Part shown: positions 46,316 through 64,000 of the stretch, in pieces | Numbering within the stretch: position 1 is the first letter of the stretch | Layout of the letters: each line of letters starts with the position of its first letter | NCBI GenBank assembly: GCA_021604105.1 | Contig: BQIW01000005.1 | Span: 12,621-76,620, forward strand | Origin: Nitrospirales bacterium | Lineage (GTDB): Bacteria > Nitrospirota > Nitrospiria > Nitrospirales > UBA8639 | Length of the DNA stretch: 64,000 bases | Direction: 5' to 3' | Program-made: the position numbers and the translations under genes | The notes under the pieces: generated by a model | What the model saw: only the letters and a program-made list of their open reading frames with translations | Told to the model about the DNA's origin: nothing | Database searches by the model: none

Positions 46316-47704
46316 TCAAGAGTCAGGGATTTTCTTGAGCCGGCGGTCCAACGCAAAGCGCGTAATGCCAAGGTATTTAGCAGCGAGACTTTTATTATTA
46401 TCAGATACCCGCATGACTTCTTCAATCAAATCGCTTTCAATGCCCGCAAGAGTTTGCTCTCCGAGAATCATTTCCATGCGCACCACCTGTTGATCCCCTC
46501 GAGTGACCGCATTGACCGAGGAACGTGCCACTTCATGAACTTCACGAGGCAAATCCCCTTCCGTCAAGCTTTTCCCACGACAAAAAATAGCCGCACGCTC
46601 CATGATGTTTTCCAGTTCACGAATATTTCCCGGATAGGGATAGCGCTCCAACAGCCGTTGGGCTTCCGGCTCAATTGCCGTAACCTCTTTACCAAGATCA
46701 CTGCTTTGTCGAATCAACGTCGCAAGAGCCAGAGGGATAATATCCTCTGTCCGATCCCGTAATGATGGGAGATTCAAGGACACCACATTCAGTCGAAAGA
46801 ACAAGTCCTCCCGGAATCTGCCTTGCGACACATCTTTACGCAGATCCCGATTGGTGGCCGCAATCAGACGAAAATCCACCTCAATATCCTCCTGCCCACC
46901 CAACCGTCTAAACGAACGCTCTTGTAATACTCGAAGCAATTTCGCTTGCATTGAAGGATTAAGGTCTCCAATCTCATCTAAAAAGAGCGTCCCGCCTTCC
47001 GCCTGCTCACAGAGGCCGGGTTTGCGCTGGTTGGCCCCCGTGAAGGCCCCACGCTCATAGCCAAACAATTCACTTTCAAATAATTCCTGAGGAATGGCTG
47101 TGCAATTGACCCCAACAAACGGACCTTTGTCCCGGGGGCCGTTATGATGAAGGACTCGAGCGACAAATTCTTTCCCTGTTCCTGTCTCTCCAAACAGAAG
47201 AACCGTCGTTTTCAAATTTTTGGCCATTTCCTGAATTTGCCCGACCAATTCTTTCATACTGGGACTATTGGCAATCAAACTGTTGAAGGCGTACCGACCG
47301 GGTCTATCCTGCGTTTCAAAGTCGATACGGCGCCGGAGGGTCAGATAGTCCAATGCGCGATCGATCACAGGCTCTACACTGGAGAAATCGACGCTTTTAA
47401 TCAGAAAATCATAGGCTCCAAGTTTAATGGCCTCCACCGCATCCTCCACCGTGCCATAGGCCGTAAGGAGAATAACCAGGGACTGTTGAGATTTCGCACG
47501 AATTTGCTTGAGCGTCTCCAGTCCGCTTAACCCGGCCATTTTTAAATCTAATAAAATTAAATCTGGCATATCATGATCAAGGGCTTCCAATAAGGCTTCC
47601 CCCGAAGTAAAGCTTCGAACATGATGGTGTCGTTTGGCGATCCGCCGGCTGATGGCCTGGCGAACCACATCATCATCATCCGTAACAAAAATGTTAGCGC
47701 GCAT
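46316..47704 (-). CDS. NtrC-family sigma54-dependent response regulator (copy 1, canonical)
   Basis: REC domain (DLILLDLKM), Walker A GETGTGKE, GAFTGA, FREDLFFRLN, and a C-terminal Fis-type HTH. Confidence 0.9.
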   Translation of the reverse strand: MRANIFVTDDDDVVRQAISRRIAKRHHHVRSFTSGEALLEALDHDMPDLILLDLKMAGLSGLETLKQIRAKSQQSLVILLTAYGTVEDAVEAIKLGAYDFLIKSVDFSSVEPVIDRALDYLTLRRRIDFETQDRPGRYAFNSLIANSPSMKELVGQIQEMAKNLKTTVLLFGETGTGKEFVARVLHHNGPRDKGPFVGVNCTAIPQELFESELFGYERGAFTGANQRKPGLCEQAEGGTLFLDEIGDLNPSMQAKLLRVLQERSFRRLGGQEDIEVDFRLIAATNRDLRKDVSQGRFREDLFFRLNVVSLNLPSLRDRTEDIIPLALATLIRQSSDLGKEVTAIEPEAQRLLERYPYPGNIRELENIMERAAIFCRGKSLTEGDLPREVHEVARSSVNAVTRGDQQVVRMEMILGEQTLAGIESDLIEEVMRVSDNNKSLAAKYLGITRFALDRRLKKIPDS

Positions 47705-47707
47705 CGA

Positions 47708-49633
47708 TTACACCGTTGGGAGTTGGGGTTGGCATACACAAGGAAGCCACCATGTCATGGTGGTCCCAATACCTGACTGACTTTCCGCATGAATCTCTCC
47801 TCCATGGGCTTCAATGATATTTCGACAAATGGGCAATCCCAGTCCGGTTCCACGATGCTTGCCGGTGGTAAAAAACGGTTCAAAAATCCGAGGAAGAGCA
47901 CTTGAACTGATTCCCTTTCCATTATCTTTGACTGTAATACGCAGCCCCGGTGTTCGTTCAATGGTTTCCTCTTCCAGGGACAGAGATAGACATCCTTCCT
48001 CCGACATCGACTCAACGGCATTCTGGATCACGTTGAGTAATACTTGCTTCAATTGATCCCGATCTGCTTGGATGGAATCCAGATTGGGAGGCGAATGGAA
48101 ATCGATTTGAATCGCCTTTTGTTTTATGGGTTCATTGAGGACCTGCAAAGATTCCAGTATCAGATCTCGTAATTGAAAGGTCACCGGGAGCAGGTCTCTT
48201 GGTCGCGCAAAGTCAACAATTTGGTTCACAATGCGATCCAGTCTCCGGGTTTCCTTGAGAATGGTTACAAGATCATCATGCCGGGAATCACCATCAGGAA
48301 AATCTTCCATCAGCAACGTCGTGGTTGATCCAATCCCCACCAGCGGATTTCGTATTTCATGGGCAATACCTGCAGCCATTTGTCCTAATGTAGCCAATCG
48401 GTCAGATCGGTTCAATTGTGCACGCATATGCTCCAAAGCCGTGATATCCACATTAAATCCCTGGTACACCATGGTCTGCCCACCGTGGTCTTGAATCGGA
48501 ACCGCCCGACATAAGACCTTGCGAACAGCACCGTCCGGATGCAGGAAGCGAAGAACCCGCTCAAATGGCTCACTCTGGTGGCAGGCATCCTGAAACGTTT
48601 CACGCACCCCCGCTCGATCGTCCGGATGAATGGCTTCCCACATATGTTCAGGATCTAACACCTCATCGGGATTCCTCCCAGCCAAAACCCAATTCTGCCG
48701 GTTGCTAAAAATCAGATGATCCTTTTTTGCCGTGAATATTCCGATGGGCGCATAATCCACAATCCCTCGATATTTAGCCTCAGAAGAGGTTAAATCCTGA
48801 TTCAGTGTCCGGAGTTCCTGTTCCGATTGTTCAATACGCCGGATATGATTTCGGATTTGGGTACCCATAGTTTGCATGACTTTCGTCAATTCGCCAATTT
48901 CATCGTCCCGTTGGAAAACGGGGATATTCGGAATATTCCCCCCGGAAACATTTTCAACGGCTTTAACCAAGGTTGTTAATGGTCCTGTAATGGACCGTGC
49001 AATGAGATGAAGAGGCACCAACAATAAGATCAATGCCAACGACCCTCCCCACACGACCACTCCCATCAGGGCCGCTCGGTCTGCCGCGCTACTACCAAGG
49101 GCGTGTTGCAATTGCGTGACTTCCCGCCGGTCAAATCGAGCCATTTCCTCACGAATCGCCAGCATGAGGATACGACCTTTTTCACTCTCGACATAGTCCG
49201 TGGCCTCTTGTGGATACCCTGCTTTGACCCGATCAATCAACCGATCTTTGTCATTCATTAATTGTTCGACCATTCCTTGAACGGTTTCGATTACCTGTCG
49301 CTGATCTTCAACAGACTTGACCATCTGTCTCAATGAATTCCCGAGTAACAGGACTCGTTGCCTGGCTGCCAAATACGGCTGCAAAAATGGGGCTTTTTGT
49401 GTCAGAATAAACCCGCGAAACCCAGTTTCGAGGTCCACAACTAAGCGCATATATTCAGCCGACGCGCTTTGCACCAGATACACCTCATTAAGACGATCTT
49501 CATCCAGAGAAAACGTCTGAACGCTTCTATAGGTCACCAGGCTCAAAATTAAGACGGCCAGAACGGGGACACCAGAGACTAAAAGAAGCTTCCTGGCAAT
49601 TGGAAGATTTAAAAAAAGTTTATTGAGAGACAT
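47708..49633 (-). CDS. sensor histidine kinase: CHASE3-HAMP-PAS-HisKA-HATPase
   Basis: N-terminal TM plus a CHASE3-like segment (ETGFRGFILT), a PAS domain, an H-box (AAGIAHEIRNPL) and N/G boxes. It ends 4 nt before the regulator gene. Confidence 0.9.
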   Translation of the reverse strand: MSLNKLFLNLPIARKLLLVSGVPVLAVLILSLVTYRSVQTFSLDEDRLNEVYLVQSASAEYMRLVVDLETGFRGFILTQKAPFLQPYLAARQRVLLLGNSLRQMVKSVEDQRQVIETVQGMVEQLMNDKDRLIDRVKAGYPQEATDYVESEKGRILMLAIREEMARFDRREVTQLQHALGSSAADRAALMGVVVWGGSLALILLLVPLHLIARSITGPLTTLVKAVENVSGGNIPNIPVFQRDDEIGELTKVMQTMGTQIRNHIRRIEQSEQELRTLNQDLTSSEAKYRGIVDYAPIGIFTAKKDHLIFSNRQNWVLAGRNPDEVLDPEHMWEAIHPDDRAGVRETFQDACHQSEPFERVLRFLHPDGAVRKVLCRAVPIQDHGGQTMVYQGFNVDITALEHMRAQLNRSDRLATLGQMAAGIAHEIRNPLVGIGSTTTLLMEDFPDGDSRHDDLVTILKETRRLDRIVNQIVDFARPRDLLPVTFQLRDLILESLQVLNEPIKQKAIQIDFHSPPNLDSIQADRDQLKQVLLNVIQNAVESMSEEGCLSLSLEEETIERTPGLRITVKDNGKGISSSALPRIFEPFFTTGKHRGTGLGLPICRNIIEAHGGEIHAESQSGIGTTMTWWLPCVCQPQLPTV

Positions 49634-49948: not shown

Positions 49949-51589
49949 TTACTTGGATAAGATAGTATCAGCCATAAATACAGGAATCCCGTGATTTTGA
50001 TGGTCTTCTGCAACAGCCCGCACATGATGGGTCAGGATCCCCTGTGCATAGTACGCTTCCGTCACCGGTTGCAATAGCACATACACAGCCAGGAGCCCCC
50101 CGATTGTCATGGTGACCGTATACGGAAGCGCCATCCACACCATCCGGCCATACGAAAGACGGATAAGGGGGGCGAGAGCGGACGTCAATAGAAAAAGAAA
50201 GGCCGCCTGCCCATTAGGAGTGGCCACACTGGGAATATTCGTCCCCGTGTTAATTGCCACCGCCAAAAGATCAAATTGATCCCGGGTAATCACTCCCTGG
50301 TGAAATGCCTGCAGCACCTGTTCAATATAGATCGTGGCAACAAAAACGTTATCGCTGATCGCCGACAGGAAGCCGTTGACAATAAAAAACATGCCGATTT
50401 GGTCATCTCCATCCATACCTAAAACAAAATGAATAATGCTTCCGAAAAGTTGTTGCTCCTGGATCACCGCTACGATCGAAAAAAACACTACCAGGAGGGC
50501 CGTGAACGGGAGAGCTTCTTTGAAGGCCTCCCCCAACTGATGCTCCTCAATAATGCCATTCAAGGCCGTCACTCCCACGATGACCGATAACCCAATTATG
50601 CCCACTTCCGCCAAATGGAAAGCCAGAGCGACAATTAACCAGATCATAGCCAGCCCCTGGACGATTAACCGGGCTTTACACCGATGATCCATCTTTTGAG
50701 AGGTCTCCTGGTCAAACCGCCAAAGAATATCCCTGACGGCTGGGGGAAGACGAAATCCATATCCAAACCATCGGAATCGTTCAACCAAAACACAAGTCAG
50801 GAATCCCACAATCAACACCGGAATGGTCACAGGAGACATGCGAATAAAGAATTCCATAAAATTCCACCCCGCCTTCTCTCCGATCAACAGATTTTGGGGT
50901 TCTCCGACCAAGGTGCAGACACCTCCGAGTGCAGTTCCAACCGCCCCATGCATAAGAAGGTTTCGTAAAAACCCTCGAAACTCCTCTAAATTCGAGCGAT
51001 GGAGGGTGCCAACCCCATGATCCAGTGTATGATCATAATCATCCTGAATACCTTTCCCTGAAGCCACCCGATGATACACTTTGAAAAACCCCACGCCCAC
51101 GGCAATGATGACTGCCGTCACGGTGAGGGCATCCAGAAATGCGGACAAAAATGCTCCCATTCCCGCAAAAAGCAGAGCCAGTGTCGTCTTTGATCTGACC
51201 TCGAGTAGGACCTTCGCAAAAACAAACAACAACAAATCTTTCATGAAGTAAATTCCGGCCACCATGAAAATCAGAAGGAGGATGACCTGAAAATTATTCA
51301 ATGCTTCGTGGTAGACGGTTGCTGGTTTTGCCAGTCCGATCAGCACCGCTTCAAGGGCCAGCAAACCACCGGGTTGCAGAGGATAACTCTTCAACGCCAT
51401 TGACAAGGTGAAAATAAATTCAAGGACGAGGCACCAGCCCGTCACAAAGGGGCCGACGGTATACAATAAGCAGGGATTAATAATGAGGAAGGCGAGAATT
51501 GTCCCCTTGTACCACCTCGGGGCATGGTCGAGAAAATTTTGTTCAAATGCACGAAGAAAAAGTAACACCGGAATACACAATCTCCACAA
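49949..51589 (-). CDS. nhaB: NhaB-type Na+/H+ antiporter (copy 2)
   Basis: 546 aa. It shares long identical blocks with copy 1, e.g. [19 protein letters not shown] and [31 protein letters not shown]. Confidence 0.85.
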
Positions 51590-51625
51590 AAATGATTCGC
51601 CAGCGAGTGGTTAACCCACAGTGCC

Positions 51626-53425
51626 CTAGCTTACCGTTAAAGCCGGTTCTTTGTGGGCTTGTAGCCCAACCTCTACGGCCTTCTTTTCCACGATCTGCAT
51701 AGCGTTATCCAACGCCTCATTAAAATGTGTGCAGATATAGTCGTCCTTCAGTCTGGAAAGTTCATTTAAATCGCCAAGAACCTGTCGGGTTCGAGGGGAC
51801 ATGCCGGCTGTTAACACTGCCACCCCGCGACTATTAGCAGCTTCAATTAAGTCTCCTAACGCGTAAGCCCCCGACAAATCCAATTCATCCAACCATTTGC
51901 AACGAATGATGAGCACATCTTTGCTGTCAAGAAGTTCCACCGTCTCGTTCAACCAATCGATCGCACCGAAAAATAACGGACCGTGAGGACGGACGATGAT
52001 AATCCGATCTCGAACGATATGCTCAAAACGACCGCTGAGCTCTCCCATATTAGCCCCATTCTGGCTGATTTTTCTGGCATAATCCCTGGCGAAGGAAAAA
52101 ATGAGGTCTTCTTCTTCCTGTTTCACATCCTCATCCCGTTGACTGAGATCCGCTTTATAGCGATCAGACTGGTCTTTGACAAACCGGAAAAACGCCACCG
52201 CGAGTCCCATCGCCATGGCGGACAATAAATTCCAAAATACGGTCATGAAGACCACGAGTCCAAATACCATCAAATCAGAGGTCGGCAATCTTCGAACCAC
52301 CGGCAGAACTCGCATATCCAGAATGTCATAGCCCGCCTTGAGGAGAATACCCGCCAAGGCGGAGAGAGGAATGGATGCGGCCAATGAACCCAGACCAAGA
52401 ATGAACGAAAGCAGAACAAGCCCCATCGTAATGGACGATAAACGGGTTCGTGCCCCACTCTGAATATTCACCACACATGGCATCGTATTGGTAGCTCCCC
52501 CTAATCCTCCAACCAAACCCGAAAAGAAATTGGCTGATCCTTGGGCGACCAATTCCCGGTCACTATTGTGATGAGTTCCGGTCATATTATCGACAATAAG
52601 ACAAGTCAGGAGGCTATCGAATATACATAATCCAGCAAGAGCCGCAGCCGGGACGAAGGCTTTTTCTAGAATGTCGAGATTGGGAAGATACAACTCAGGT
52701 AAGCCGGTGGGAATATCTCCGATTTTAGGGATGTCCAGCCCCAGCACGACCGTGGTTATCGTACCGGCAAATAAGCCTATTAACGGGCCTGGCAACCAAG
52801 GAACAGGAGAAATTTTTGGCCAAACAATGACAAAAAGTAAGGTCAACACCCCGATTCCTACTGCCACAGGGGATGCATGGGCCAAACTTGAGGGCAATTC
52901 CGTTATAGCGGACGTAATACTCTTCACGCCGGGAAGCCCCAAAAACGGATTGAGTTGAAGCAACATATACAACACACCCAAACCCGTCATAAATCCCGAG
53001 ATGACTGAATAGGGCGTAAACTTGATAAATTGGCCGAGCTTTAATAATCCCAACACAATTAAAATAAAGCCGGTTAAGGCGACAGTCGTGAAAACGAAAA
53101 CCAGATCGGGACTCCCATCGGCCAACTTATTGGTTTGAGTCATGGAAAGGATTTGAATGGTCATCGGTCCTGTCGGCCCACCTACTGACCACGCTGACCC
53201 ACTGAGTGGACCCGCAATAAGACCGGCCGCCACTGCCGACCACATGCCTGCAATCGCCCCGATCCCGGAAGCCACTCCGAAGGCCAGGGCCATGGGAAGC
53301 ACCACCATCGCCACCGTGATTCCCGCCAACACATCCCCCCTCACATTGCTGGCAATCCCTTTAAAGTTTTCTTTGAAATTAAAATCTTTAAGATATTCCC
53401 CAATACCCGCAGTCAGGTGCTCCAT
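51626..53425 (-). CDS. SulP-family anion transporter with STAS domain (copy 2)
   Basis: SulP signature (LPMALAFGVASG...GPTGPM) and a C-terminal STAS domain. I prefer the ATG at 53425 because GGAGG lies 9 nt upstream; the track start at 53455 lacks an SD. Confidence 0.85.
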   Translation of the reverse strand: MEHLTAGIGEYLKDFNFKENFKGIASNVRGDVLAGITVAMVVLPMALAFGVASGIGAIAGMWSAVAAGLIAGPLSGSAWSVGGPTGPMTIQILSMTQTNKLADGSPDLVFVFTTVALTGFILIVLGLLKLGQFIKFTPYSVISGFMTGLGVLYMLLQLNPFLGLPGVKSITSAITELPSSLAHASPVAVGIGVLTLLFVIVWPKISPVPWLPGPLIGLFAGTITTVVLGLDIPKIGDIPTGLPELYLPNLDILEKAFVPAAALAGLCIFDSLLTCLIVDNMTGTHHNSDRELVAQGSANFFSGLVGGLGGATNTMPCVVNIQSGARTRLSSITMGLVLLSFILGLGSLAASIPLSALAGILLKAGYDILDMRVLPVVRRLPTSDLMVFGLVVFMTVFWNLLSAMAMGLAVAFFRFVKDQSDRYKADLSQRDEDVKQEEEDLIFSFARDYARKISQNGANMGELSGRFEHIVRDRIIIVRPHGPLFFGAIDWLNETVELLDSKDVLIIRCKWLDELDLSGAYALGDLIEAANSRGVAVLTAGMSPRTRQVLGDLNELSRLKDDYICTHFNEALDNAMQIVEKKAVEVGLQAHKEPALTVS

Positions 53426-53515
53426 TCCTAATTTCCTCCGACTCAATCCTCTCATTCGTCATCGCCTGGCAAAGAAGGTACACGTGCGCCTTTAAAATCC
53501 ATAGAAAATTTCATC

Positions 53516-53531
53516 CGCAACTTACATGCCA
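53516..53531 (-). promoter_or_regulatory. sigma54-type promoter candidate for sulP2-nhaB2
   Basis: Minus strand reads TGGCAT-GTAAG-TTGCG (GG-N10-GC), 60-105 nt upstream of the two candidate start codons. Confidence 0.55.
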
Positions 53532-53647
53532 ATAATACAGCAGATGGGGTTCGACAAAGATTTTTTTATTTTCCTTTATAACTTCCACAATATCTGCGTA
53601 GAAATCCCGTCCCAACTATAAATAGATTCCTCTGGGTAAGACTCGCT

Positions 53648-53661
53648 GTGCGAAATCGTAC
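53648..53661. promoter_or_regulatory. 14-bp near-palindromic upstream element (putative enhancer-binding-protein site)
   Basis: GTACGATTTCGCAC in gene orientation. A second ATTTCGCACAG copy lies 24 bp further upstream (53670-53680). The centre is ~122 bp from the -24 GG. Confidence 0.5.
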
Positions 53662-53777
53662 GGTGTGCCCTGTGCGAAATAACTCCCGTTACGGCATGAA
53701 CAGAGGAAGGGGATTTTTCCCATTATCGGAAAGTTGAAGGAATGGGAAAGTGAAGCCTATCAGGACTTAATGAGGAA

Positions 53778-55169
53778 TTAGAATGTCAATGTCGCCATGG
53801 TATAGACATAATTGACATCGGCTGTCCCAGGGCTTTGTGGCACTCGATCAAAATAGGAGCCTTTGAAAAAACGGGTATATCCTACTTCAAATACCGAATG
53901 TCGGAAATACCCTGCCTGAGGAGCCCACGTTATGGAGGTATCCAACATGTTGCCAAGAAAAGTGCCCGCTCGACCGGTCGGATCCTGCAGACCGCTACCC
54001 ACAAACGGGCCGCGGCCATCAGCCAGCCAGAAGGTGCGATGAGACACCATCAACCTGACTGTGGAGATCGGTTGGAGTGTCGAGCGAAACCCAATAGGTG
54101 AAAAAATATTGGATGGAAAGATGATGCCCAAAATTCCGGTTGGTCCATATTCTGCCCGGCGTTTGGCAAACAAGAAATCAAAATTCTTTTTCGGGTTCCT
54201 GTCTCCGGACGCATAGTCAAACAGATAGACGAAACGTAAGGGCCATTCGGTCGCAAAACTATAGCCCACCTCTCCGTGATGTCGATGTGCAAAGAGATTC
54301 GTATGATCGACCTCTCCAACCTGGTAGATCGATTCTATCTCGTAATCGAATTGTTCTTTCGCCGGCTTGGCAAACACACGAAATCCCATGGTGGAAAGAT
54401 TACGTTTTTGCAGGTTACTCCCCTCATTCAACTGAAAATAATATAACTCCCCATTCGCCCAGGGAACATGGCGGCTGGAAATCGCCGCACCGGAAAAGTA
54501 GCTAATGGGGCTAGTCCAATCCGGGCTGACGGTATGACGTTGGACCGGTCGTGTGACAAATACCCGGAGCCCCCAATCAGAGGGTTTATCTCCCCCAAGG
54601 GTCAATTGCACCCCATCAAATGATGGCGTAAAGCTTCCAAACCGATGCCCTGCCACAAGACGTCCTTTCCCAAAATCCATGATCAACCGGCCGACCTCAA
54701 ATTTGCCGGAACTTCCTGTTCCCAAAAAATTCTGCGACACCAGATCAAGATGGAGTTGAAAAATATCCAGATGATCGACAAAATTGGGATTGTGATCCTG
54801 CCCCCGATCAGCTACAGGGGCCCGAAAATCTGCGAGTTCCAGCGTGAATCGAATAGGGTCCCAAATATCCTTAATTCCCAACAAAATCCTCGTCCGCTGC
54901 GCAACCATCTGATTACTGCCTGCTGTGCCTTTCGTAAAACTTTGATTAAACGTTTCATAGCGGGTTCGATGTTCTACTCCCAAATCCAACCATTCCGGTG
55001 TCAGAGCAGAAAGAGTATTAGGCTGTCGCAAAACAGTTTTCAAGCGATCAAAGTCACTCGGGAATTCTTTCGTATGAGTTCCATTTCCAGCCCCATGAGC
55101 AGGGTTTTGTACTGACTGGACTCCAAGCAAGAACAGGAGGCTCAAACAAACGACTCCAGATTTTTTCAT
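53778..55169 (-). CDS. outer-membrane beta-barrel, alginate-export (AlgE)-like porin family
   Basis: Signal peptide from the ATG at 55169 (GGAGA SD), alternating beta-strand pattern, an HRTRYE motif near the N-terminus and a C-terminal ...TLTF aromatic end. Confidence 0.6.
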   Translation of the reverse strand: MKKSGVVCLSLLFLLGVQSVQNPAHGAGNGTHTKEFPSDFDRLKTVLRQPNTLSALTPEWLDLGVEHRTRYETFNQSFTKGTAGSNQMVAQRTRILLGIKDIWDPIRFTLELADFRAPVADRGQDHNPNFVDHLDIFQLHLDLVSQNFLGTGSSGKFEVGRLIMDFGKGRLVAGHRFGSFTPSFDGVQLTLGGDKPSDWGLRVFVTRPVQRHTVSPDWTSPISYFSGAAISSRHVPWANGELYYFQLNEGSNLQKRNLSTMGFRVFAKPAKEQFDYEIESIYQVGEVDHTNLFAHRHHGEVGYSFATEWPLRFVYLFDYASGDRNPKKNFDFLFAKRRAEYGPTGILGIIFPSNIFSPIGFRSTLQPISTVRLMVSHRTFWLADGRGPFVGSGLQDPTGRAGTFLGNMLDTSITWAPQAGYFRHSVFEVGYTRFFKGSYFDRVPQSPGTADVNYVYTMATLTF

Positions 55170-55464
55170 CGTATCTCCATACACAACCAAAGCAAACCAT
55201 ACTAATTTTCATTTTCAATAATTTCCTATTCACCTACTTGGGCCACGCAAAACCAATACCAAGTTCCAGATATTGAGGAATCTGCACGAGGCATTGAAAA
55301 AGCACAACGAAATACCATGGTTCCCTGCTCCTTACAAAATGTCTGAATCCTTAGGTTGGAGTGATGCCGTTGATTCCGATTAATTTTCAATATTGGGTGT
55401 GCGTCGGTATCAGATTTTCCCCTGACTACTGGCTTCATGCACAGTGGCCATCACTTGAAAAAAG

Positions 55465-55478
55465 GTGCCATTTCACAC
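55465..55478. promoter_or_regulatory. copy of the 14-bp upstream element
   Basis: GTGCCATTTCACAC, with a weaker TCATCGCAC half-site 24 bp downstream (55494-55502). Confidence 0.4.
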
Positions 55479-55634
55479 ACGACCTCCTGTGCATCATCGC
55501 ACGCCAGCTGAGTTTGTTCGGCAGTTTCCCGCAAACCTTTGGATGAGGAGGCAACGGCTAACAGTGCGGAACCGAAGGATACTATTGTCCTCGCTTAATA
55601 GGTTGAGCATGCTTAAATTATTAGGGAAAATCTG

Positions 55635-55649
55635 GGCATGCCCTTTGCT
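55635..55649 (+). promoter_or_regulatory. sigma54-type promoter candidate upstream of the second NtrC-family gene
   Basis: GGCAT-GCCCT-TTGCT (GG-N10-GC; the base before GG is G, not T), ~280 nt before the ATG at 55926. Confidence 0.35.
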
Positions 55650-55925
55650 GTCTACTTTACAACATGAGGCCATGCCTCTTCCTGGAGAATGGTTCATTGG
55701 AGTGGAGATCCTCGGAACCTCTGTCCTCACACCTATCCAACACCCCTTGGATACAGGACAATGGCCGGGGGCTCTTTCCAATGAGTCCAGCAAAAAACAC
55801 TCATACCGTATAAAAGATTACCGGTTCTCCGAATTTTTCTGCAGTTGATATCGATGACCAAAGATGGGAAAGTACCATGAAATGGGGGCACAACTTCTTT
55901 ACTGATCTACAAGACAGGGAATGCT

Positions 55926-57314
55926 ATGCGTGCAACAATTTATGTGACCGACGATGATCAAAACGTGTGTTCCGCGTTAAGTCGCCGGTTGGTAAAAAAA
56001 GGGCACCTCGTGAGAAGCTTTCATTCAGGACCCTCGCTCATTGAGGCCTTGGAACATGAACTTCCTGATTTGCTGTTCCTGGATCTTAAAATGCCGGAGA
56101 TGGATGGACTCGAGACCTTACGACACATTCGACAAAAGATCCCGAAAACCCTGATTGTCATGTTGACCGCTTATGGGAGCGTGGAAGATGCAGTGGAGGC
56201 GATGAGGCTCGGAGCTTATGATTTTCTGATTAAATCCATTGATTTCTCAACGGTTGAACCAGCCTTACATCGCGCCATTACCTTCCTGGAGCTAAGGCGT
56301 CGGATTGAGTTTTCTGCTTCTGAGAAACAACGGCAATATTCCTGGGAACATGTCATCGCCAGGAGTCCAGCCATGTCCAAGGTTATCGAACAACTCAAAT
56401 CTTTCGACGCTCAGGACGTCCCCTTAGTGTTTTTTCAAGGGGAGGTTGGGACGGGGAAAGAATTCTTGGCACGTATTCTTCATTATAATAGCCACCAACA
56501 GCTCGGCCCGTTTGTTACGGTCAGTTGCAACGAACAGAGGGGATCACTCCTTGAACCTCAATTATTTGGATATGAACGGGGAGCATTTAGTGGTGCCAGT
56601 CAAAGCATGCCGGGAGCATTTGAACATTCCGACGGGGGAACCCTATTTATTGATGAGATTGAACATCTGTCAATTCCCATTCAGGGATCATTGGCGGAGG
56701 CGATTCGTACTCGTGCATTTTGTCGAATGGGAGGTTTTGACCGCCTCCCCATCAAAAATCGACTTGTGGTAACCAGTGCGATTCCACTGGATCAACCGGG
56801 CCACCAGGAAATATTTCATCCAGAGTTACGTTCTCTACTCGAAAAACAACAACTCTTTATTCCTCCCCTCCGAGAACGGAAAGAAGATATCATCCCTTTG
56901 GTGATCAAAACCATTCACGCCTATGGTGAAGAAATCGGCCGTCCAAAACTCGATATTGATTCTTCGGTACCTCCACTTTTGGATACGTATCAATTCCCGG
57001 GAAATATTCGAGAATTAGAGGCCATGATTCGCAGGGCGGTATTATGCTCGCAGGGACCTGTCCTTACTTCACTGGACTTTTATTCTCAACATCCTGGCGG
57101 CGGAGAAGGTCTCTCTCCAAATACCGGTCGGGTTCTTTTTGAAATCGGCCAACACAGTCTACAGGACATCCAAGTCATGGTGATTGATGAAGTCTTGCGA
57201 TTCACCAAACAAGACAAAGAACAGGCAGCTGGCTATCTACACATTTCTACACAGGCACTGGATGAACATATTCAACTACGGAAAAACTTCTCCCCTGTGA
57301 CAGAGAGGTCCTGA
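55926..57314 (+). CDS. NtrC-family response regulator paralog (copy 2) with divergent AAA+ C-terminal motifs
   Basis: REC domain (DLLFLDLKM), Walker A GEVGTGKE, GAFSGA and Walker B LFIDEI. VVTSAIPL and FHPELRSLLE replace the AATNRDL and FREDLFFRLN seen in copy 1. A C-terminal HTH is present. Confidence 0.8.
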   Translation: MRATIYVTDDDQNVCSALSRRLVKKGHLVRSFHSGPSLIEALEHELPDLLFLDLKMPEMDGLETLRHIRQKIPKTLIVMLTAYGSVEDAVEAMRLGAYDFLIKSIDFSTVEPALHRAITFLELRRRIEFSASEKQRQYSWEHVIARSPAMSKVIEQLKSFDAQDVPLVFFQGEVGTGKEFLARILHYNSHQQLGPFVTVSCNEQRGSLLEPQLFGYERGAFSGASQSMPGAFEHSDGGTLFIDEIEHLSIPIQGSLAEAIRTRAFCRMGGFDRLPIKNRLVVTSAIPLDQPGHQEIFHPELRSLLEKQQLFIPPLRERKEDIIPLVIKTIHAYGEEIGRPKLDIDSSVPPLLDTYQFPGNIRELEAMIRRAVLCSQGPVLTSLDFYSQHPGGGEGLSPNTGRVLFEIGQHSLQDIQVMVIDEVLRFTKQDKEQAAGYLHISTQALDEHIQLRKNFSPVTERS

Positions 57315-57673
57315 GAGAAGGAGCCGACATTTCCTCCATTCATTCGTTTTTCCATTGTGGCGCATTCTTTCCAGGGTAAGTTCCTCCATGCTCCTTAAAA
57401 GGACTTTATGCATTTGACAGGCAGTTATCTGGTCCTCATCGACTGTTGTAAACACTTTCACTCTAGCTTTCCTTTCACATTTTCCTCAAAGCTCTCAACT
57501 GAATAGTGCCTAAGAGCTTCTGAACAAAGAATCTTCCTTACCAGAAGCCCCCGAATATTCCGCCTGGGAACCATTCTTTGACAAGTTCAATAGAGCGATG
57601 CATTGGTCTAACTATTATCCTCACCTGAATCCAAGCACATATAGTTCAAGAAATTTTTAGCACAGTTCACCTG

Positions 57674-57687
57674 GTGCGATTTCACAC
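57674..57687. promoter_or_regulatory. copy of the 14-bp upstream element
   Basis: GTGCGATTTCACAC, with a TTTTAGCACAG half-site 24 bp upstream. The centre is ~100 bp from the -24 GG at 57781. Confidence 0.55.
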
Positions 57688-57779
57688 CCCTTCCCTTCCG
57701 CCACGTTGTCGAGGGAAAAGAAAATATCAATAAATCCAAGAAATTCCGTGCTTTTTTCAAAAAAAACCGAATTAAGGAC

Positions 57780-57795
57780 TGGCACTTCTTTTGCT
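57780..57795 (+). promoter_or_regulatory. sigma54 promoter (perfect consensus)
   Basis: TGGCAC-TTCTT-TTGCT, 60 nt upstream of the ATG at 57855. Confidence 0.7.
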
Positions 57796-57854
57796 CTTTC
57801 TGTATTAGGAACCTTCCACTTTCCGAACACTCATCGAATAGGGAAAATGCACCA

Positions 57855-58622
57855 ATGCCGATTCTTTCAGCACCCCTTTCTTCTTCAACCGAAACACCTC
57901 CAGGGTCCTTCAATTTCAAGAAAACATTGGAACGGAATTTTCCAGGAGCCTACCCCTCCGATGCCTTCGTGGATTATTCCCAATTCCGGTTGCACCCCTT
58001 TGGCATGAATCAGAAAAACTCAATCGCCTGTGTGAGCGTGTGTCGGGACGAGATAGCCACCCCCTTCATGAACAGACTGCATCATGCCTGGAATGGAGTA
58101 TTTAACTTTTCAAGTCTGGCCGGAATGCTGTACCTGGGTATAACGGGATTTCAAGCCGCCCATCATCATGCACCCAATACTGATGCCAGAGAAAAATACG
58201 TGTATTTTGCCTTTCCCCATATCGCCATCGATGAAAATGGCACTCCCGGAAATTGCCGCCGCACAGGACGCCAAGCCTTGTCCCAAGCTTGCGGCGCATT
58301 GATTAAGATTCTTCAAGACCCACCTCGAGGGGAAGCCAGCTTGAACTTGGATCCAGACGACGTGGAGCAGAGTCTCCTCACCCAACGCCTGTTTAAAAAA
58401 TTTGGATTCGGAGAAATTCCTGATTTGGTCACTTTGACCAAAGGCACCCAACAGATCATCAGAGAAGACCTTGAACGGATGATACAACTAACCATCGATC
58501 CCAGGAGAACCGACTATGCGGTATTTACCGGTATACAAATTCACGGTCCAGCCCATAAGGACTGGATTTGGATTGAAACTTCATATGTTTTCGTTGATGG
58601 GGTAAGAAAACCATTACTGTAA
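57855..58622 (+). CDS. conserved hypothetical; candidate LCIB/LCIC-like beta-carbonic-anhydrase-fold protein
   Basis: 255 aa. Cys63 lies in VCRDE (C-x-D), followed by His122 (FPHIAID) and Cys146. The 59- and 24-residue spacings are close to the Cys/His/Cys zinc triad I recall for diatom LCIB4. The family call is from memory only. Confidence 0.4.
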   Translation: MPILSAPLSSSTETPPGSFNFKKTLERNFPGAYPSDAFVDYSQFRLHPFGMNQKNSIACVSVCRDEIATPFMNRLHHAWNGVFNFSSLAGMLYLGITGFQAAHHHAPNTDAREKYVYFAFPHIAIDENGTPGNCRRTGRQALSQACGALIKILQDPPRGEASLNLDPDDVEQSLLTQRLFKKFGFGEIPDLVTLTKGTQQIIREDLERMIQLTIDPRRTDYAVFTGIQIHGPAHKDWIWIETSYVFVDGVRKPLL

Positions 58623-59277
58623 AAATTAAAATTCTTTTTCCTAAAAAGCCGATTACTTCCTACATCAGAAGGTACCCAGCAAGCTGGGGGGCATCTCTTA
58701 AATGTGTTGTCGAATGACAATTGCGCATTCCTCCCCTCAGCAAGCTGAGGGGTATCCTGCGTTCATTTTATGAACTGAAAAAAAGATCAAGTTAACTATG
58801 AAAGGATGTACCCTGATTCGGCCTATCATTTGGGCGATTTCATCAAGCCCTTAATCGGTCACGTTCCTAATGTAAATGTAGCCGTCACCCAAAAAGTATC
58901 GAACAGTTTCATAGCTACGCAGGTACGAAATGGTGAAATTCATAGGTTCAGACAACTAGCCCAAGGACATCCAATCCACCATTCCTTCGACCTCATCAAG
59001 GTTATATCCAAAAAGATTGGGAAAAAATCCGCAAATGCCCTCACCTGAGGAAAAAGTAATACAGAAGCAGAGATTCTCCACCAGCCACCCCAATAAGCAC
59101 ACACCCAACAATGTCCCACACCTGGCTACCCCAAGACATGGAGAAAGAAAGTCCCTAATAATTTATCAAAAAGCTTATGTTCCAAATCATCATTTTGACT
59201 CTTCTCACCACCCTCCCTTTATAGCCAGTGTGTTTTTAGTTGTTCCTATCCATTTATATCTATTTCTTTCAAAATTA

Positions 59278-59291
59278 GAGCGATATCGCAC
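59278..59291. promoter_or_regulatory. copy of the 14-bp upstream element
   Basis: GAGCGATATCGCAC (the inner GCGATATCGC is a perfect palindrome). The centre is ~125 bp from the -24 GG at 59410. Confidence 0.5.
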
Positions 59292-59361
59292 AGTCATTGC
59301 TTAATAAATCCGCTCGTTTTCATGTATAGAAACGGATCCACTTTTATTCAAGATATACAAG

Positions 59362-59389
59362 TTTATGAATTCATTAATGAATTCATAAA
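59362..59389. promoter_or_regulatory. perfect 28-bp AT-rich palindrome between the upstream element and the sigma54 promoter
   Basis: TTTATGAATTCATT|AATGAATTCATAAA. Confidence 0.6.
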
Positions 59390-59408
59390 TCATCAAAATA
59401 AACCATTT

Positions 59409-59424
59409 TGGCATTTGCCTTGCT
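59409..59424 (+). promoter_or_regulatory. sigma54-type promoter candidate
   Basis: TGGCAT-TTGCC-TTGCT (GG-N10-GC), ~35-45 nt upstream of an AGGAGA SD and small ORFs. Confidence 0.55.
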
Positions 59425-59462
59425 TTTTATAGATCACAAGAGATCAAAAAAATCTTAGGAGA

Positions 59463-59528
59463 ATGATCCCAATGGAAGGTTTTACTCTTATTTTACTTAT
59501 CACCTGGGCCGTACTTTCGAGGTTCTAA
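59463..59528 (+). CDS. candidate 18-21-aa hydrophobic peptide
   Basis: AGGAGA at 59457-59462, with an in-frame ATG at 59472 (9-nt spacing). It encodes M(IPM)EGFTLILLITWAVLSRF. Confidence 0.3.
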   Translation: MIPMEGFTLILLITWAVLSRF

Positions 59529-59529
59529 C

Positions 59530-59604
59530 ATGGAACATGTCCCTCTTATCGCAATTTTGACTTTCATAGTCATTGCATTGATGAACCGTTTGGGTTTGGA
59601 TTAA
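59530..59604 (+). CDS. candidate 24-aa hydrophobic peptide
   Basis: GAGGT lies 6 nt upstream of the ATG, which starts 2 nt after the previous stop. It encodes MEHVPLIAILTFIVIALMNRLGLD. Confidence 0.3.
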   Translation: MEHVPLIAILTFIVIALMNRLGLD

Positions 59605-59821
59605 ATCCCGCACCCTCTTCGGTTTTCCTGATTCTTTACTGCACGTGGTTTGCTCTTCGCCCATCGTCCAATTGCCCTAGCCACAACTTTAGGTTTTTTC
59701 AAGAGAAAGAGTATGAGGTCTTGTGGATCTCCTGCTATAGTTTTGTATAACTCATACTCAAGCAATGGGTGAACTGTAAGCAAGAAAGATGGTATGCAGG
59801 CCTACAAGTCAGGTTAAATTT

Positions 59822-60397
59822 ATGACTCGTCAGTTCTTTTTCATACTCCTTTTCTCTATTCTCATTTCCCTGGGAATTGGTGTGGGTATCGGAGGCCAAC
59901 TTGCACCACAGGAAGGCATGCCTATCCGTGTGGTCGCAAACTATTTACACGCCGTTCTTCAAGCAGACCGGACCTTTTACACCCAACATGTCGTGGAACG
60001 GATGGAAGATATGCTTATTGTGACCGCAACGGAAAATTGGCGGGAAGAACGGACATTGCCTTTGCCCGCACAATTTTTTAAAGAAGCCTCCCGTGGATTA
60101 CAGGTTTCCGGCAAACCATTTCGATATCGGTTGATGGGTCTTTGGCCATTGAATCCCGAGAATGCGCCTCACAATGCCCGTGAACGTAAAGCCCTGGAGC
60201 AAGTTGTGGAATATGGAGAAGTGACTGATCAAGAAATCCAGATAGAGAATCAGTCTTATTATCAAGCTATTTTTCCTGATCGGGCGGTGAGCCGAGCCTG
60301 CATCAACTGCCATAATGCCCATAAGGACAGTCCCAAACGGGACTTTAAATTAAATGATGTCATGGGAGGACTGGAAATTTTAATTCCCCTTAACTAA
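59822..60397 (+). CDS. DUF3365 (Tll0287-like) c-type haem sensor-domain protein
   Basis: Signal anchor from the ATG at 59822 and a single C-terminal CxxCH (CINCHNAHK) followed by ...DVMGGLEILIPL, as in DUF3365. Confidence 0.7.
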   Translation: MTRQFFFILLFSILISLGIGVGIGGQLAPQEGMPIRVVANYLHAVLQADRTFYTQHVVERMEDMLIVTATENWREERTLPLPAQFFKEASRGLQVSGKPFRYRLMGLWPLNPENAPHNARERKALEQVVEYGEVTDQEIQIENQSYYQAIFPDRAVSRACINCHNAHKDSPKRDFKLNDVMGGLEILIPLN

Positions 60398-60575
60398 CCT
60401 CCCCGGTAGCAAAATTTACAGCCCATTTCGGCCTCCTTATTTTTCCCGCAATCTTATTCATTGTTTCCTCGTTATTCTTTTGAAAACCTACTTCACTTCC
60501 CACTTGACGAAGAACGGTGTGATAGAGTGAGATCCCCGCCCAGTTGGGCTTCATCTTTTTCCTAGGGCACGCTCA

Positions 60576-61346
60576 ATGAGACTTGTTCACGGGCTACAAT
60601 TCAACAACCTCTGCCGTGATATCTATGGAGGGATGGTTCACGCAGTCGTGGCCCTACCATTGGCGTCGCTTTAGGCGTGGTTTCTGGTCTAGGAGCCTTT
60701 GCCGGTTTATACGGGGCTATAGTTGTCGGATTTATTGCCGCGCTTTTCGGAGGTATCCCCGCTCAGGTTTCCCGCCCCACGGGCCCCATGACTGTGGTGA
60801 TGGCCGTAATCGTCACAATCTTCGCAGAGAATCCTGGTTTGATCCTGATGGCCGTGATTCTTGGTGGTGTCTTTCAAATCCTGTTGAGAACTTCCAGGGA
60901 GGGACAGTTCATCGCGTTGGTCCCGTATGCGGCTGGCTCGGGATTCATGAGCGGCATTGGCTATGTCATTCTCATTTTGCAATTGAGTCCTCTGGTAGGC
61001 CATGCCGCCAGACCTGAGGGTGTAGTCGCGATGCACAAGGCATTCAAGGAATTTATGGAAACCCGGTGGGGGATGCCACCCTTGCAGGGGTCCTTATTTT
61101 GGCCATTATGTATCCATGGTCCGACCTTTGGAAACCGTTCCGGGCTTTAATACAATTTCTGGCGTTGTTTTGGATTTATCCAAAGTCCCAACTATTGCCG
61201 GGACAGAGGCCCTGGATGGATCGGGAGGACTGGTGCAAATTCGGCCTGACCATGGTTTTGCCAGCCGGTTGAAGGCCCTGCAGAAAGGTTCCTTGGTAGA
61301 AGGAGCGATCCGAGTGACCAATCACGCCCCCTCGGCATCAAATTAG
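60576..61346 (+). pseudogene. decayed SulP-family transporter gene (frameshifts plus large internal deletion)
   Basis: Three reading frames together spell SulP1-like segments. They are MRLVHGLQFNNLCRDIYGGMVHAVVALPLASL*, then GLGAFAGLYGAIVVGFIAALFGGIPAQVSRPTGPMTVVMA...SGFMSGIGYVILILQ, then GDATLAGVLILAIMY, then the STAS-like ISGVVLDLSKVPTIAGTEAL. About 350 aa of the TM core are missing. Confidence 0.75.
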
Positions 61347-61379
61347 ATCTTCCTGCGACTCCCGGAGAAGAACTGATTT

Positions 61380-62756
61380 TTGGACACCAAAAATTGGGTA
61401 ATTAGAAATATGCACGAAACATCTATCCAGACCATCTTTGGTTTCTCTCCACTTTGGATAGCTACATCAATTTTAATATTGACCTATGCCGTCATTATTG
61501 CTGAACGGTTTAACCGGGCAATTGTGGCGCTTCTTGGAGCCACTGCCATTATTGGAACAGGAGTCCTCACGCAAGACCAAGCGATTCAAGGCATTGATTT
61601 CAATACCATCGGCCTACTCACCGGCATGATGATCCTGGTCGGAATTACCAAAGAATGCGGCATCTTTCAATTTCTCGCGATCAAAGCCGCGAAGGCAGCC
61701 AAGGGTAGTCCGTGGGGTATCCTCGTTATGCTCTCAATTGTCACCGCAGTGCTCTCGGCATTATTAGATAATGTCACGACGGTGCTGTTGGTCGCCCCGG
61801 TTACCTTGCTCATTGCAGACGAACTGGAAATCAGTCCGTATCCTCTGCTATTCGCAGAAATCAACGCCTCAAATACAGGTGGTACCGCGACGCTGATTGG
61901 AGATCCTCCCAACATTATGATCGGCTCGGCTACCAGTTTGACGTTTAATGATTTCGTGATTCATCTGACTCCCCTCGCCATTGTTGTCTTTAGTGCGACC
62001 CTTATTTCACTTTGGTTTATCTATGGAAAAACCATGTTCGCGTCCCCCGAAGCCCGATCCCGCATCATGGCGTTTAACGAATATGAGGCCATTCGGGATG
62101 TTGGCCTACTAAAATATTGTCTTGTGGTCTTTAGCCTGGTTATTCTCGGGTTTATCCTGGCCCATTCGATAGGTATGGAACCCGCCACCATTGCTCTGGG
62201 TGGCGCCGCCCTGCTCCTGTTACTCTGCACATTTTCCCTAAACATCGAACAAGCAGGGCATAAAGTTCATACCATGTTTGGACAAGTGGAATGGATTACC
62301 ATTTTCTTTTTCTGCGGCTTGTTCATTATCGTCACCGGCGTGGAACATACCGGTCTTTTACAGTCCATTGCAGATTGGACAGTAAGTCTAACCGCAGGAA
62401 ATTTCACGGTTACCACCCTGGCTATTCTTTGGGTTTCGGCTATTCTTTCATCAATCGTCGACAACATTCCATTTGTAGCCACGATGATTCCTATGATCAA
62501 AAGCATGCTCCCGGTCTTTCAACAAGCGGGTATTCCGCTTGAACAGGCCAAGTCCCTTTGGTGGGCATTATCGTTGGGCGCATGCTTAGGAGGAAATGGG
62601 ACACTGGTGGGAGCCTCAGCCAATTTGATTGTGGCGGGGATTGCGGAACGCAATGGCGTGCCATTTCGATTTCTACCATTTTTCAAAGTGGCCTTTCCTC
62701 TGATGATCCTACAAATACTGCTCAGCACCCTTTACATTTGGATGAGGTATTTATGA
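61380..62756 (+). CDS. ArsB/NhaD-superfamily (citrate-transporter-like) permease
   Basis: ~450 aa, polytopic, with LLDNVTTVLLVAPV and GGTATLIGDPPNIMIG motifs typical of this superfamily. The start is TTG 61380 or ATG 61410. Confidence 0.75.
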   Translation: MDTKNWVIRNMHETSIQTIFGFSPLWIATSILILTYAVIIAERFNRAIVALLGATAIIGTGVLTQDQAIQGIDFNTIGLLTGMMILVGITKECGIFQFLAIKAAKAAKGSPWGILVMLSIVTAVLSALLDNVTTVLLVAPVTLLIADELEISPYPLLFAEINASNTGGTATLIGDPPNIMIGSATSLTFNDFVIHLTPLAIVVFSATLISLWFIYGKTMFASPEARSRIMAFNEYEAIRDVGLLKYCLVVFSLVILGFILAHSIGMEPATIALGGAALLLLLCTFSLNIEQAGHKVHTMFGQVEWITIFFFCGLFIIVTGVEHTGLLQSIADWTVSLTAGNFTVTTLAILWVSAILSSIVDNIPFVATMIPMIKSMLPVFQQAGIPLEQAKSLWWALSLGACLGGNGTLVGASANLIVAGIAERNGVPFRFLPFFKVAFPLMILQILLSTLYIWMRYL

Positions 62757-63202
62757 ACGCCAAGGACATCATGATCCGGCAGGCCCACACCATTCCAGTT
62801 CAATGTACGATCGGAGAGGCCCTTCGCCAAATGGCGGATCTACGCATCCAGGCTTTTCCAATTGTAGATGAGAAAAAGATGGTAGTGGGAACACTGAGTT
62901 TCTGGCAGATTCTTGAATGGGCTATGCCTTCCTACATTTCTCAAGATGATCTTTCCGACGTTCGATTCGCTCCAGACCTTGCCCAGTTCCACGAACGGCT
63001 TGGAGAACTTAAACCCAAGCCAGTCACTCAGGTAATGAACCCCCAGCCCCCATGTGTCAGGCCGGATGACTCCGTACTTGCCTGCGCGGTCCTGATCATG
63101 AAAACCCCGAAAACCGTCTATTTACTTCCGGTGGTGGAAACAGACCAGCAACTGGTTGGAGTCATCTCTGCATGGGACATTATTAAGGAAATCACAGGGT
63201 AG
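62753..63202 (+). CDS. CBS-domain pair protein
   Basis: The ATG overlaps the permease stop (ATGA). It has two CBS-like repeats (AKDIMIRQAHTIPV...FPIVDE; VTQVMNP...LPVVETDQQLVGVISAWDIIK). Confidence 0.75.
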   Translation: MNAKDIMIRQAHTIPVQCTIGEALRQMADLRIQAFPIVDEKKMVVGTLSFWQILEWAMPSYISQDDLSDVRFAPDLAQFHERLGELKPKPVTQVMNPQPPCVRPDDSVLACAVLIMKTPKTVYLLPVVETDQQLVGVISAWDIIKEITG

Positions 63203-63206
63203 AAAG

Positions 63207-63251
63207 AACGGAAGGGAGATGCCTGCCATCCCGTTCCGTCCCTTACTTTTT
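63207..63251. terminator. possible bidirectional terminator between convergent genes
   Basis: ACGGAAGGGA / TCCC(G)TTCCGT stem with one bulge. A T6 run begins 7 nt after the stem on the plus strand. Confidence 0.35.
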
Positions 63252-63256
63252 TCCTT

Positions 63257-63718
63257 TCACGGGCCCGCATTAAACGATTCCGTATATACTTCCACTTGAT
63301 CGATCGCCCACCTGCCATCAGGATTCTTCAGCAGGATATACAACTCATCCTGCGGCTGATCACCCATTAGCGTGACAATATGGGCATGAACAATCACATG
63401 GGCTTCTTCTCCCACCATCTTCTCATGGGCTATTTTGGCCCGCACATATTTCAACTGTAGGCCCCGAAGATAGGGGCCTCGGATGGCAATCCATTCTTCT
63501 TTGGACACCCCCTCCCTAAAAGCCGTTGTCGTCAGCTCAGCCGCCCGTTCAATATTTCCCGGGTAGACTTCAAACCACTGTTCCACCACCTGGCGAGGTG
63601 TGGAGAAAGATGGCTCTTGAGACGCCGCTATCCCGCCACTGGCCGCGCACATGGCAATCGCTAGGCAGGTCCCTGTCCCCCAACGGAGAATCCCTCGCCC
63701 TTTGCCTTTTGACTTCAT
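63257..63718 (-). CDS. secreted hypothetical protein
   Basis: 153 aa with a GGGAGA SD and an N-terminal signal-like segment (CLAIAMCAASGG). I recognise no family. Confidence 0.5.
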   Translation of the reverse strand: MKSKGKGRGILRWGTGTCLAIAMCAASGGIAASQEPSFSTPRQVVEQWFEVYPGNIERAAELTTTAFREGVSKEEWIAIRGPYLRGLQLKYVRAKIAHEKMVGEEAHVIVHAHIVTLMGDQPQDELYILLKNPDGRWAIDQVEVYTESFNAGP

Positions 63719-64000
63719 GGTAGAGTCTCCCTTATTTGGAAAATACCCGATACCTTGAAAGAGTCCTTGGCCATATCATTGTAATTAACCTGTAGAGTCC
63801 AGAGGAAAAATCGAAATACTGTTCCAAGTTGGCATTGCCATTTCATGGCATCTCCCCTAGAGATCATTTTGTTAAAATCGAGAGTGACACGAAAATTGGT
63901 CACGCACAGAAAAAATTTAGGGCTCAATCGACATGGTACCATTAACAAACCAACCTGGATTCAATCAGCGGAAAAAACCTCGTCCCCAAGAACATCTCAC

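Follow-up and report, generated by a model that had tools for sequence, protein, structure and literature searches.

What does a relative of the algal protein LCIB do in a nitrite-oxidising bacterium, and together with which genes is it switched on? The question is raised by one gene in a 64,000-nucleotide stretch of a Nitrospirales genome (NCBI GenBank assembly GCA_021604105.1, contig BQIW01000005.1, positions 12,621 to 76,620 of the forward strand), referred to below as the window. The original prediction, made from the letters alone, described its product as an LCIB-like carbonic anhydrase (CA)-fold protein under sigma-54 control, co-regulated with SulP-NhaB genes and interconverting or recapturing CO2 and bicarbonate. 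The analysis presented here confirms, at the level of sequence, that the gene encodes a bacterial LCIB relative with its zinc-site residues intact. In this nitrite-oxidising Nitrospirales host, the gene appears to be turned on jointly with bicarbonate-type transporter genes next to it. The product is probably, though by no means certainly, a cytoplasmic LCIB/theta-type zinc CA that is induced along with bicarbonate import and equilibrates bicarbonate and CO2 for the reductive tricarboxylic acid (TCA) cycle.

The protein family is already known and curated in Pfam, and the family assignment itself adds little. Records of metagenome-assembled genomes already name such proteins 'low-CO2 inducible protein LCIB', and two genome surveys count theta-CA among the bacterial genes for handling dissolved inorganic carbon (PMC10880623; PMC13147460); the latter, a 2026 survey of autotrophs using the reductive TCA cycle, lists it in Nitrospira japonica (Supplementary Table S3). 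The same survey calls the large set of inorganic-carbon transporters and CAs in Nitrospirota 'mysterious', and the locus is a concrete, testable piece of that puzzle. A literature search of titles and abstracts found no paper on the regulation or the gene neighbours of bacterial LCIB genes, and the regulon layout described below was found in none of the papers searched. This layout, and its link to a conserved CBS/permease cassette, are the parts worth pursuit.

Family, fold and zinc site

The gene and its product are as follows:

57855..58622, + strand: LCIB/theta-type carbonic-anhydrase-fold protein, 255 aa; predicted zinc ligands Cys63, His122 and Cys146, plus Asp65, His105 and Arg136

The open reading frame (ORF) starts with ATG, comprises 255 codons and ends with TAA; the reverse strand across the same interval contains many stops and no open frame. 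A profile search places the product in the Pfam family LCIB_C_CA (PF18599) with an E value of 4.1e-51 and a score of 173.9 bits, far above the cut-off of 25, covering model positions 2-221 of 223. The canonical β-CA family Pro_CA (PF00484) gives no match at E values up to 10, and an NCBIfam search returned no family. Among the sequences of solved structures, the best matches are Chlamydomonas LCIC (5b5x, E of 1.4e-36) and LCIB (5k5w, 9.8e-36), followed by three 'LCIB_C_CA domain' entries (9w05, 9vzj and 6kfs, about 1e-14) and the diatom PtLCIB4 (5b5y, 4e-11).

The structural comparison leads to the same family. An AlphaFold2 model built from a 35-homologue alignment reaches a mean predicted local distance difference test (pLDDT) of 87.5 and a predicted TM score (pTM) of 0.85. 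In a Foldseek search against the Protein Data Bank (PDB), the eight top matches are all LCIB-family chains, with E values of 2e-19 to 1e-15 and TM scores of 0.68-0.86 (5k5w_B, E of 2e-19, TM 0.76/0.85; 5b5y_A, TM 0.80/0.85). Canonical β-CAs rank below them, with E values of about 4e-4 and TM scores of about 0.4. The likeness to LCIB stated in the original prediction thus holds in both sequence and structure, the model matching LCIB, LCIC and PtLCIB4 (E of 1e-18 to 2e-19, TM 0.71-0.85) ahead of the β-CAs.

The residue claims of that prediction are likewise seen in the translated ORF. Cys63 lies within V-C-R-D-E-I, His122 within F-P-H-I-A and Cys146 within Q-A-C-G-A-L, with spacings of 59 residues between the first two ligands and 24 between the last two. 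Position +4 from Cys63 is occupied by Ile67, so the arginine of the β-CA CxDxR motif is missing. The LCIB spacings of about 56 and 24 given in the original prediction fit Cys61, His117 and Cys141 of PDB 5B5Y, which serve as the zinc-ligand criterion for theta-CA in PMC13147460. The three ligands align with the CRDE, FAFPHIAI and ACGAL motifs of Chlamydomonas reinhardtii LCIB (CrLCIB) and LCIC (CrLCIC), and the offsets in the alignment with 5b5y (query 23-156 against chain 21-151) are consistent with the zinc ligands of that chain. His105 and Arg136 align with the histidine of SHSP and the arginine of SRPGR in CrLCIB, themselves 32 residues apart; this is also the distance from 162 to 194 in the numbering of PMC5876011, where His162/161 and Arg194/193 are named as important in CrLCIB/LCIC. 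In the alignment of 35 bacterial homologues, Cys63, Arg64, Asp65, Glu66, His105, Arg136 and Cys146 are invariant, and His122 is conserved in at least 90%. One orthologue, P0008 from locus L005 (Nitrospira sp. DJ), carries an arginine in place of the zinc-ligand histidine (FPRITID) and a cysteine in place of the arginine of a conserved G-R-Q, changes which suggest a degenerate copy.

Residues 1-17 are disordered (pLDDT below 50), rich in Ser, Thr and Pro and without hydrophobicity, which indicates a cytoplasmic location. A signal peptide was rejected in view of this polar, disordered N terminus.

With CrLCIB and CrLCIC (5k5w, 5b5x), the bacterial protein shares the fold (TM up to 0.85) and the motifs C-R-D-E, S/H-H-x-P, F-P-H-I-A-I, R-x-G-R and A-C-G-A-L. 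The algal proteins are, however, about 450 aa long (448 aa according to PMC5876011), chloroplast-targeted and equipped with extra N- and C-terminal parts, whereas the bacterial one is no more than a domain of 255 aa whose short N terminus is disordered, encoded behind a predicted sigma-54 promoter in a bacterial host without a RuBisCO match or a pyrenoid. The diatom theta-CAs PtLCIB3 and PtLCIB4 (5b5y, 6kfs) share family, fold (TM 0.80/0.85), the Cys/His/Cys ligand pattern and the second spacing of 24, but show far lower sequence similarity (E of 4e-11 to 4e-14) and are reported to be constitutively active (PMC9614477). To judge by the title of PDB 5b60, the diatom enzyme has a serine at the position of Arg64. 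Canonical β-CAs show a related fold, a Cys/His/Cys zinc site and an aspartate at +2 of the first cysteine; the bacterial protein differs from them in having no PF00484 match, a TM score of only ~0.4 and no arginine at +4 of CxDxR. The 'theta carbonic anhydrase' of Nitrospira japonica NJ11 (PMC13147460, Supplementary Table S3) belongs to the same Pfam family and the same bacterial group. Its 241 aa correspond to a shorter form, like the 240-aa paralogue on contig C36 of the present genome, whereas the 255-aa form carries an N-terminal extension. Section 13 and the Table S3 row of that survey are silent on regulation and neighbours.

Predicted sigma-54 promoters, palindromes and the genes behind them

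The regulatory argument rests on promoter elements and palindromes at four transcription units:

57780..57795, + strand: sigma-54 -24/-12 promoter TGGCACTTCTTTTGCT of the LCIB gene, ending 60 nt before its ATG; exact consensus, conserved in relatives
57674..57687, no strand: palindrome GTGCGATTTCACAC (consensus GTGCGA-N2-TCGCAC), 106 bp ahead of the -24 element of the LCIB gene; candidate binding site of an enhancer-binding protein
53517..53531, - strand: sigma-54-type promoter TGGCATGTAAGTTGC before SulP2-NhaB; same or near-same sequence in L002 and L004-L008
53648..53661, no strand: palindrome GTGCGAAATCGTAC, 117 bp upstream of the SulP2 promoter
59409..59424, + strand: sigma-54-type promoter TGGCATTTGCCTTGCT before the operon of the Tll0287-like gene
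59278..59291, no strand: palindrome GAGCGATATCGCAC, 131 bp upstream of the sigma-54-type promoter of the Tll0287 operon
55247..55261, - strand: sigma-54-like element TGGTATTGGTTTTGC before the porin gene; TGGTAY-N5-TTTGC kept in L002 and L004-L008

The element TGGCACTTCTTTTGCT is the only zero-mismatch match to TGGCAC-N5-TTGCW within the 64-kb window. An alignment of the upstream region with eight related loci (L001-L008; nine sequences in all) shows two conserved blocks, namely, the -24/-12 element and, about 106 bp further upstream, the palindrome GTGCGATCTCGCAC. The GG and GC of the -24/-12 element are intact in eight of the nine sequences, the ninth, L004, reading TAGCAC. At up to one mismatch, GTGCGA-N2-TCGCAC occurs three times in the window (53648, 57674 and 59278), each of these copies preceding a sigma-54-type element by 106-131 bp. 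When up to two mismatches are allowed, seven occurrences are observed against 1.8 expected. The porin promoter is preceded by two weaker palindrome matches further upstream. The same pairs of promoter and palindrome are found again at the equivalent positions of L001-L008, provided that the locus covers the region.

The genes behind these elements, together with the activators that may act on them and the DabA gene discussed further below, are the following:

55926..57314, + strand: EBP2, a response-regulator-type sigma-54 activator with receiver and AAA+ domains, Walker A and GAFSGA
46316..47704, - strand: EBP1, an NtrC-type sigma-54 activator with HTH_8
47708..49633, - strand: CHASE3-HAMP-PAS histidine kinase adjoining EBP1
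53778..55190, - strand: Alginate_exp-family outer-membrane porin, divergent from EBP2
51626..53455, - strand: SulP2, a SulP-family anion transporter with STAS domain
49949..51589, - strand: NhaB Na+/H+ antiporter, downstream of SulP2
59789..60397, + strand: Tll0287-like protein with CxxCH motif
60555..61307, + strand: third SulP gene, a remnant
61380..62756, + strand: CitMHS/ArsB-NhaD-type permease, 458 aa
62753..63202, + strand: CBS-pair protein, 149 aa from an ATG overlapping the permease stop codon
34431..37457, - strand: DabA

EBP2 lies immediately upstream of the LCIB gene, an adjacency kept in L001-L008, and the genome contains rpoN (Sigma54_DBD on contig C12). The predicted sigma-54 control of the LCIB gene thus gains in silico support from the exact element, its conservation, rpoN, the two nearby activators (with GAFSGA in EBP2) and the upstream palindrome. 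A consensus scan found neither a sigma-70-like promoter before the LCIB gene nor a + strand terminator after it, and a search of 53000-64000 against Rfam at E values up to 0.1 gave no match, so no known leader or riboswitch was found there. Co-regulation with SulP-NhaB, as originally proposed, is upheld in silico for only one of the two SulP-NhaB pairs in the window. The pair at 49949-53455 has palindrome and promoter type in common with the LCIB gene; in the window scan, neither a sigma-54 element nor a palindrome turned up at the first SulP-NhaB pair or at the DabA cluster, and both are excluded from the regulon for this reason. As an algal-type CA has its promoter type and palindrome in common with candidate bicarbonate importers, these genes should respond together to one signal, and the palindrome and the two activators offer direct handles for finding it.

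In L002-L007 the gene order is kinase, EBP1, (NhaB), SulP and porin, followed divergently by EBP2, LCIB, a spacer, the Tll0287-like gene, SulP, the CitMHS permease, CBS and a hypothetical gene. Counted over all eight related loci, the order holds in seven. L003 has no SulP, NhaB or porin, and both L001 and L008 are truncated. L002, L005, L006 and L007 each carry an intact third SulP gene; in the window, the pieces that match the L006 protein are spread over three frames, and residues 198-462, about 265 codons, are absent. The NhaB gene that follows SulP2 is complete in L006 as well as in the window and fragmentary in L002, L004, L005 and L007, which indicates that parts of the regulon decay independently across lineages.

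The spacer 3' of the LCIB gene (58623-59400) is ORF-poor and measures about 0.8-1.1 kb; L001, L004 and L006 conserve it at 76-79% nucleotide identity. Searches of it yielded neither a long ORF nor an Rfam match or a terminator. A 447-aa transposase-like ORF makes it longer in L007. A 24-codon hydrophobic ORF, MEHVPLIAILTFIVIALMNRLGLD (59530-59604, +), is located between the Tll0287-like gene and the sigma-54 promoter at 59409. Its frame shows 70-89% protein identity in seven relatives, but the antisense frames are about equally conserved, so that coding by this ORF is not demonstrated.

Probable role of the LCIB-type enzyme

In the favoured reading, zinc would be held by Cys63, His122 and Cys146, and Asp65, His105 and Arg136 would complete the active site. 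One of the two nearby NtrC-type activators probably acts on the LCIB promoter from the palindromic upstream site, and the same design of promoter and palindrome would drive the SulP2-NhaB operon and the Tll0287-(SulP)-CitMHS-CBS operon. Through this common design, together with the sigma-54-like porin promoter, the four units would form one inducible inorganic-carbon regulon. Bicarbonate may pass the outer membrane via the porin; Na+-coupled transport by SulP would bring it into the cell, with NhaB expelling the Na+. Once inside, it would be brought into equilibrium with CO2 by the LCIB-type enzyme, to supply the CO2-using carboxylases of the reductive TCA cycle. Family membership, fold, conserved residues, the conservation of promoter and palindrome and the gene neighbourhoods are shown; catalysis, the inducing signal, the transporter substrates and the net direction of flux are inferred. 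The scheme matches the proposal that the authors of the Nitrospira marina study made for SulP-NhaB pairs plus other CAs, BicA-like SulP genes beside NhaB genes being read there as bicarbonate uptake feeding the reductive TCA cycle (PMC8115632).

Nitrospirales and Nitrospira genomes supply the closest homologues of the protein, at 72-91% identity. The host genome, of 4.9 Mb in 218 contigs and 96% complete, contains an ATP-citrate-lyase citrate-binding domain, and no match to a RuBisCO large subunit or a bacterial microcompartment shell protein was found in it. No match to an α-CA was found in the genome either. Pro_CA (PF00484) gives three matches, distributed over two contigs. Two of the three lie side by side with a TAA stop between them; the match thus split, at C72:11368-11834 (-), may represent a broken gene or an assembly error. 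A second LCIB_C_CA gene lies on contig C36 (26141-26770; L009:1453-2175, -). Its product of 240 aa is 50% identical to the window copy, and it is located directly downstream of a 355-aa cation-exchanger-like gene. A 78%-identical homologue of the latter in the metagenome locus L033 matches Pfam Na_Ca_ex and is likewise paired with an LCIB gene.

Several points weigh against the favoured reading. SulP carriers also move sulfate and other anions. The canonical β-CA genes and the second LCIB paralogue mean that the window copy is not the sole possible cytoplasmic CA, and the loss of the zinc histidine in P0008 makes the function dispensable in at least some relatives. The family is patchy in the phylum, being found in 19 of 201 sampled genomes, in neither of two others of the same genus and in none of 12 of the same family. 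As to the binder of the palindrome, the HTH_8 match of EBP2 is sub-threshold (E of 0.27). Finally, truncated recombinant CrLCIB and CrLCIC, which also have the CRDE motif, show no CA activity in vitro (PMC5876011).

The same enzyme might work in the opposite direction, hydrating leaked or released CO2 in an alkaline cytoplasm and thereby keeping bicarbonate for bicarbonate-using carboxylases, alongside the DabA encoded 20 kb away. Stromal CO2 recapture has been proposed for LCIB (PMC5876011; PMC13275658), and DabA, correctly placed in the window by the original prediction, is accompanied there by an Mrp-like module. The LCIB gene is, however, co-regulated (in silico) and syntenic with SulP-type importers and not with DabA, at whose cluster the sigma-54 element and the palindrome were not found. 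In addition, a free CA is reversible and its direction is set by fluxes that the sequence cannot reveal, which is counted against this alternative as well. On balance it is rather unlikely.

The failure of the CRDE-type algal proteins to show activity in vitro, cited above, also fits a second alternative, in which the protein with the LCIB fold is no free-running enzyme but serves transporters or CBS proteins as a regulated or structural partner and works only when complexed or modified. Such a role has been suggested for the Chlamydomonas LCIB-LCIC complex; the crystallisation of a PtLCIB4 S47R mutant (title of PDB 5b60) marks this position as functionally interesting; and CBS sensor proteins flank LCIB genes in many metagenome loci. 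Yet the catalytic-site positions conserved across the 35 bacterial sequences argue for retained chemistry, and heterologous-expression work on CRDE-type Chlamydomonas LCIB is cited in support of a CA-like activity (PMC13275658), a result that also favours an active zinc CA. The partner role is accordingly given a small chance.

Some β-CA-fold enzymes hydrolyse COS or CS2. A regulon for another anion or gas, with an enzyme acting on COS or CS2, or one for pH or Na+ homeostasis is very unlikely: neighbours such as SulP, CitMHS/ArsB-NhaD, DASS, NhaB, Mrp and Na_Ca_ex include several cation/proton antiporters that would fit a pH or Na+ theme, but all characterised family members, as far as the sources consulted describe them, act on or are implicated in CO2/bicarbonate, and three other gene sets for inorganic carbon are present in the window (DabA and two SulP-NhaB pairs).

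Neighbours of LCIB genes in metagenome loci

In 80 metagenome loci with LCIB homologues, neighbours were classed by Pfam and tblastn. Duplicates, or two parts of one contig, are present among them (L019/L020, L023/L024 and L058/L085), so the counts slightly overstate the number of independent cases. A transport or porin gene lies directly beside the LCIB gene in 41 of the 80 loci; the other 39, many of them short contigs, show none of the neighbours listed here:

28 of 80 loci (20 of the 36 with at least 1.5 kb of upstream sequence): Na_sulph_symp/DASS carrier of about 505 aa upstream, usually with a CBS protein before it
19 of 80 loci: homologue of the 458-aa CitMHS/ArsB-NhaD-type permease of the window downstream, 39-49% identity, often after a 162-aa CBS protein
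4 of 80 loci: different CitMHS permease downstream
4 of 80 loci: Mrp subunit E downstream
4 of 80 loci (L078, L081, L087 and L094): Alginate_exp porin directly upstream, same strand
3 of 80 loci: Nitrospirales layout
1 of 80 loci: Na_Ca_ex gene upstream

The window thus holds a widespread set of LCIB, CBS and permease genes, here split into separate sigma-54 units and joined to the porin and to SulP-NhaB. That LCIB genes recur beside genes for CBS proteins and Na+-family carriers suggests a wider, uncharacterised uptake cassette. The four loci with an Alginate_exp porin show that the link between this porin family and LCIB extends beyond the Nitrospirales.

Only three of the loci (L015, L016 and L017) have a sigma-54 element in the 250 nt before the LCIB ORF, so sigma-54 control is not general for bacterial LCIB genes. 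Close homologues of EBP2 are encoded in L016 and L017, and the closest LCIB match, with 82% identity, is that of L015.

A broader proposal, possible but doubtful, would combine these observations. The four sigma-54-type units of the window (porin, SulP-NhaB, LCIB-type CA and Tll0287-(SulP)-CitMHS-CBS, three of them with a palindrome) would give a nitrite oxidiser that lacks carboxysomes and uses the reductive TCA cycle an inducible biophysical system for concentrating CO2, governed by a dedicated two-component/enhancer-binding-protein circuit, and the LCIB-CBS-permease core would be an undescribed bacterial inorganic-carbon cassette older than the use of LCIB in algae.

Elsewhere in the window, at 41302-41316 (-), there is a fourth exact TGGCAY-N5-TTGC element, about 185 nt upstream of a di-haem cytochrome c/DHOR-like gene (39505-41118, -), with no palindrome nearby.

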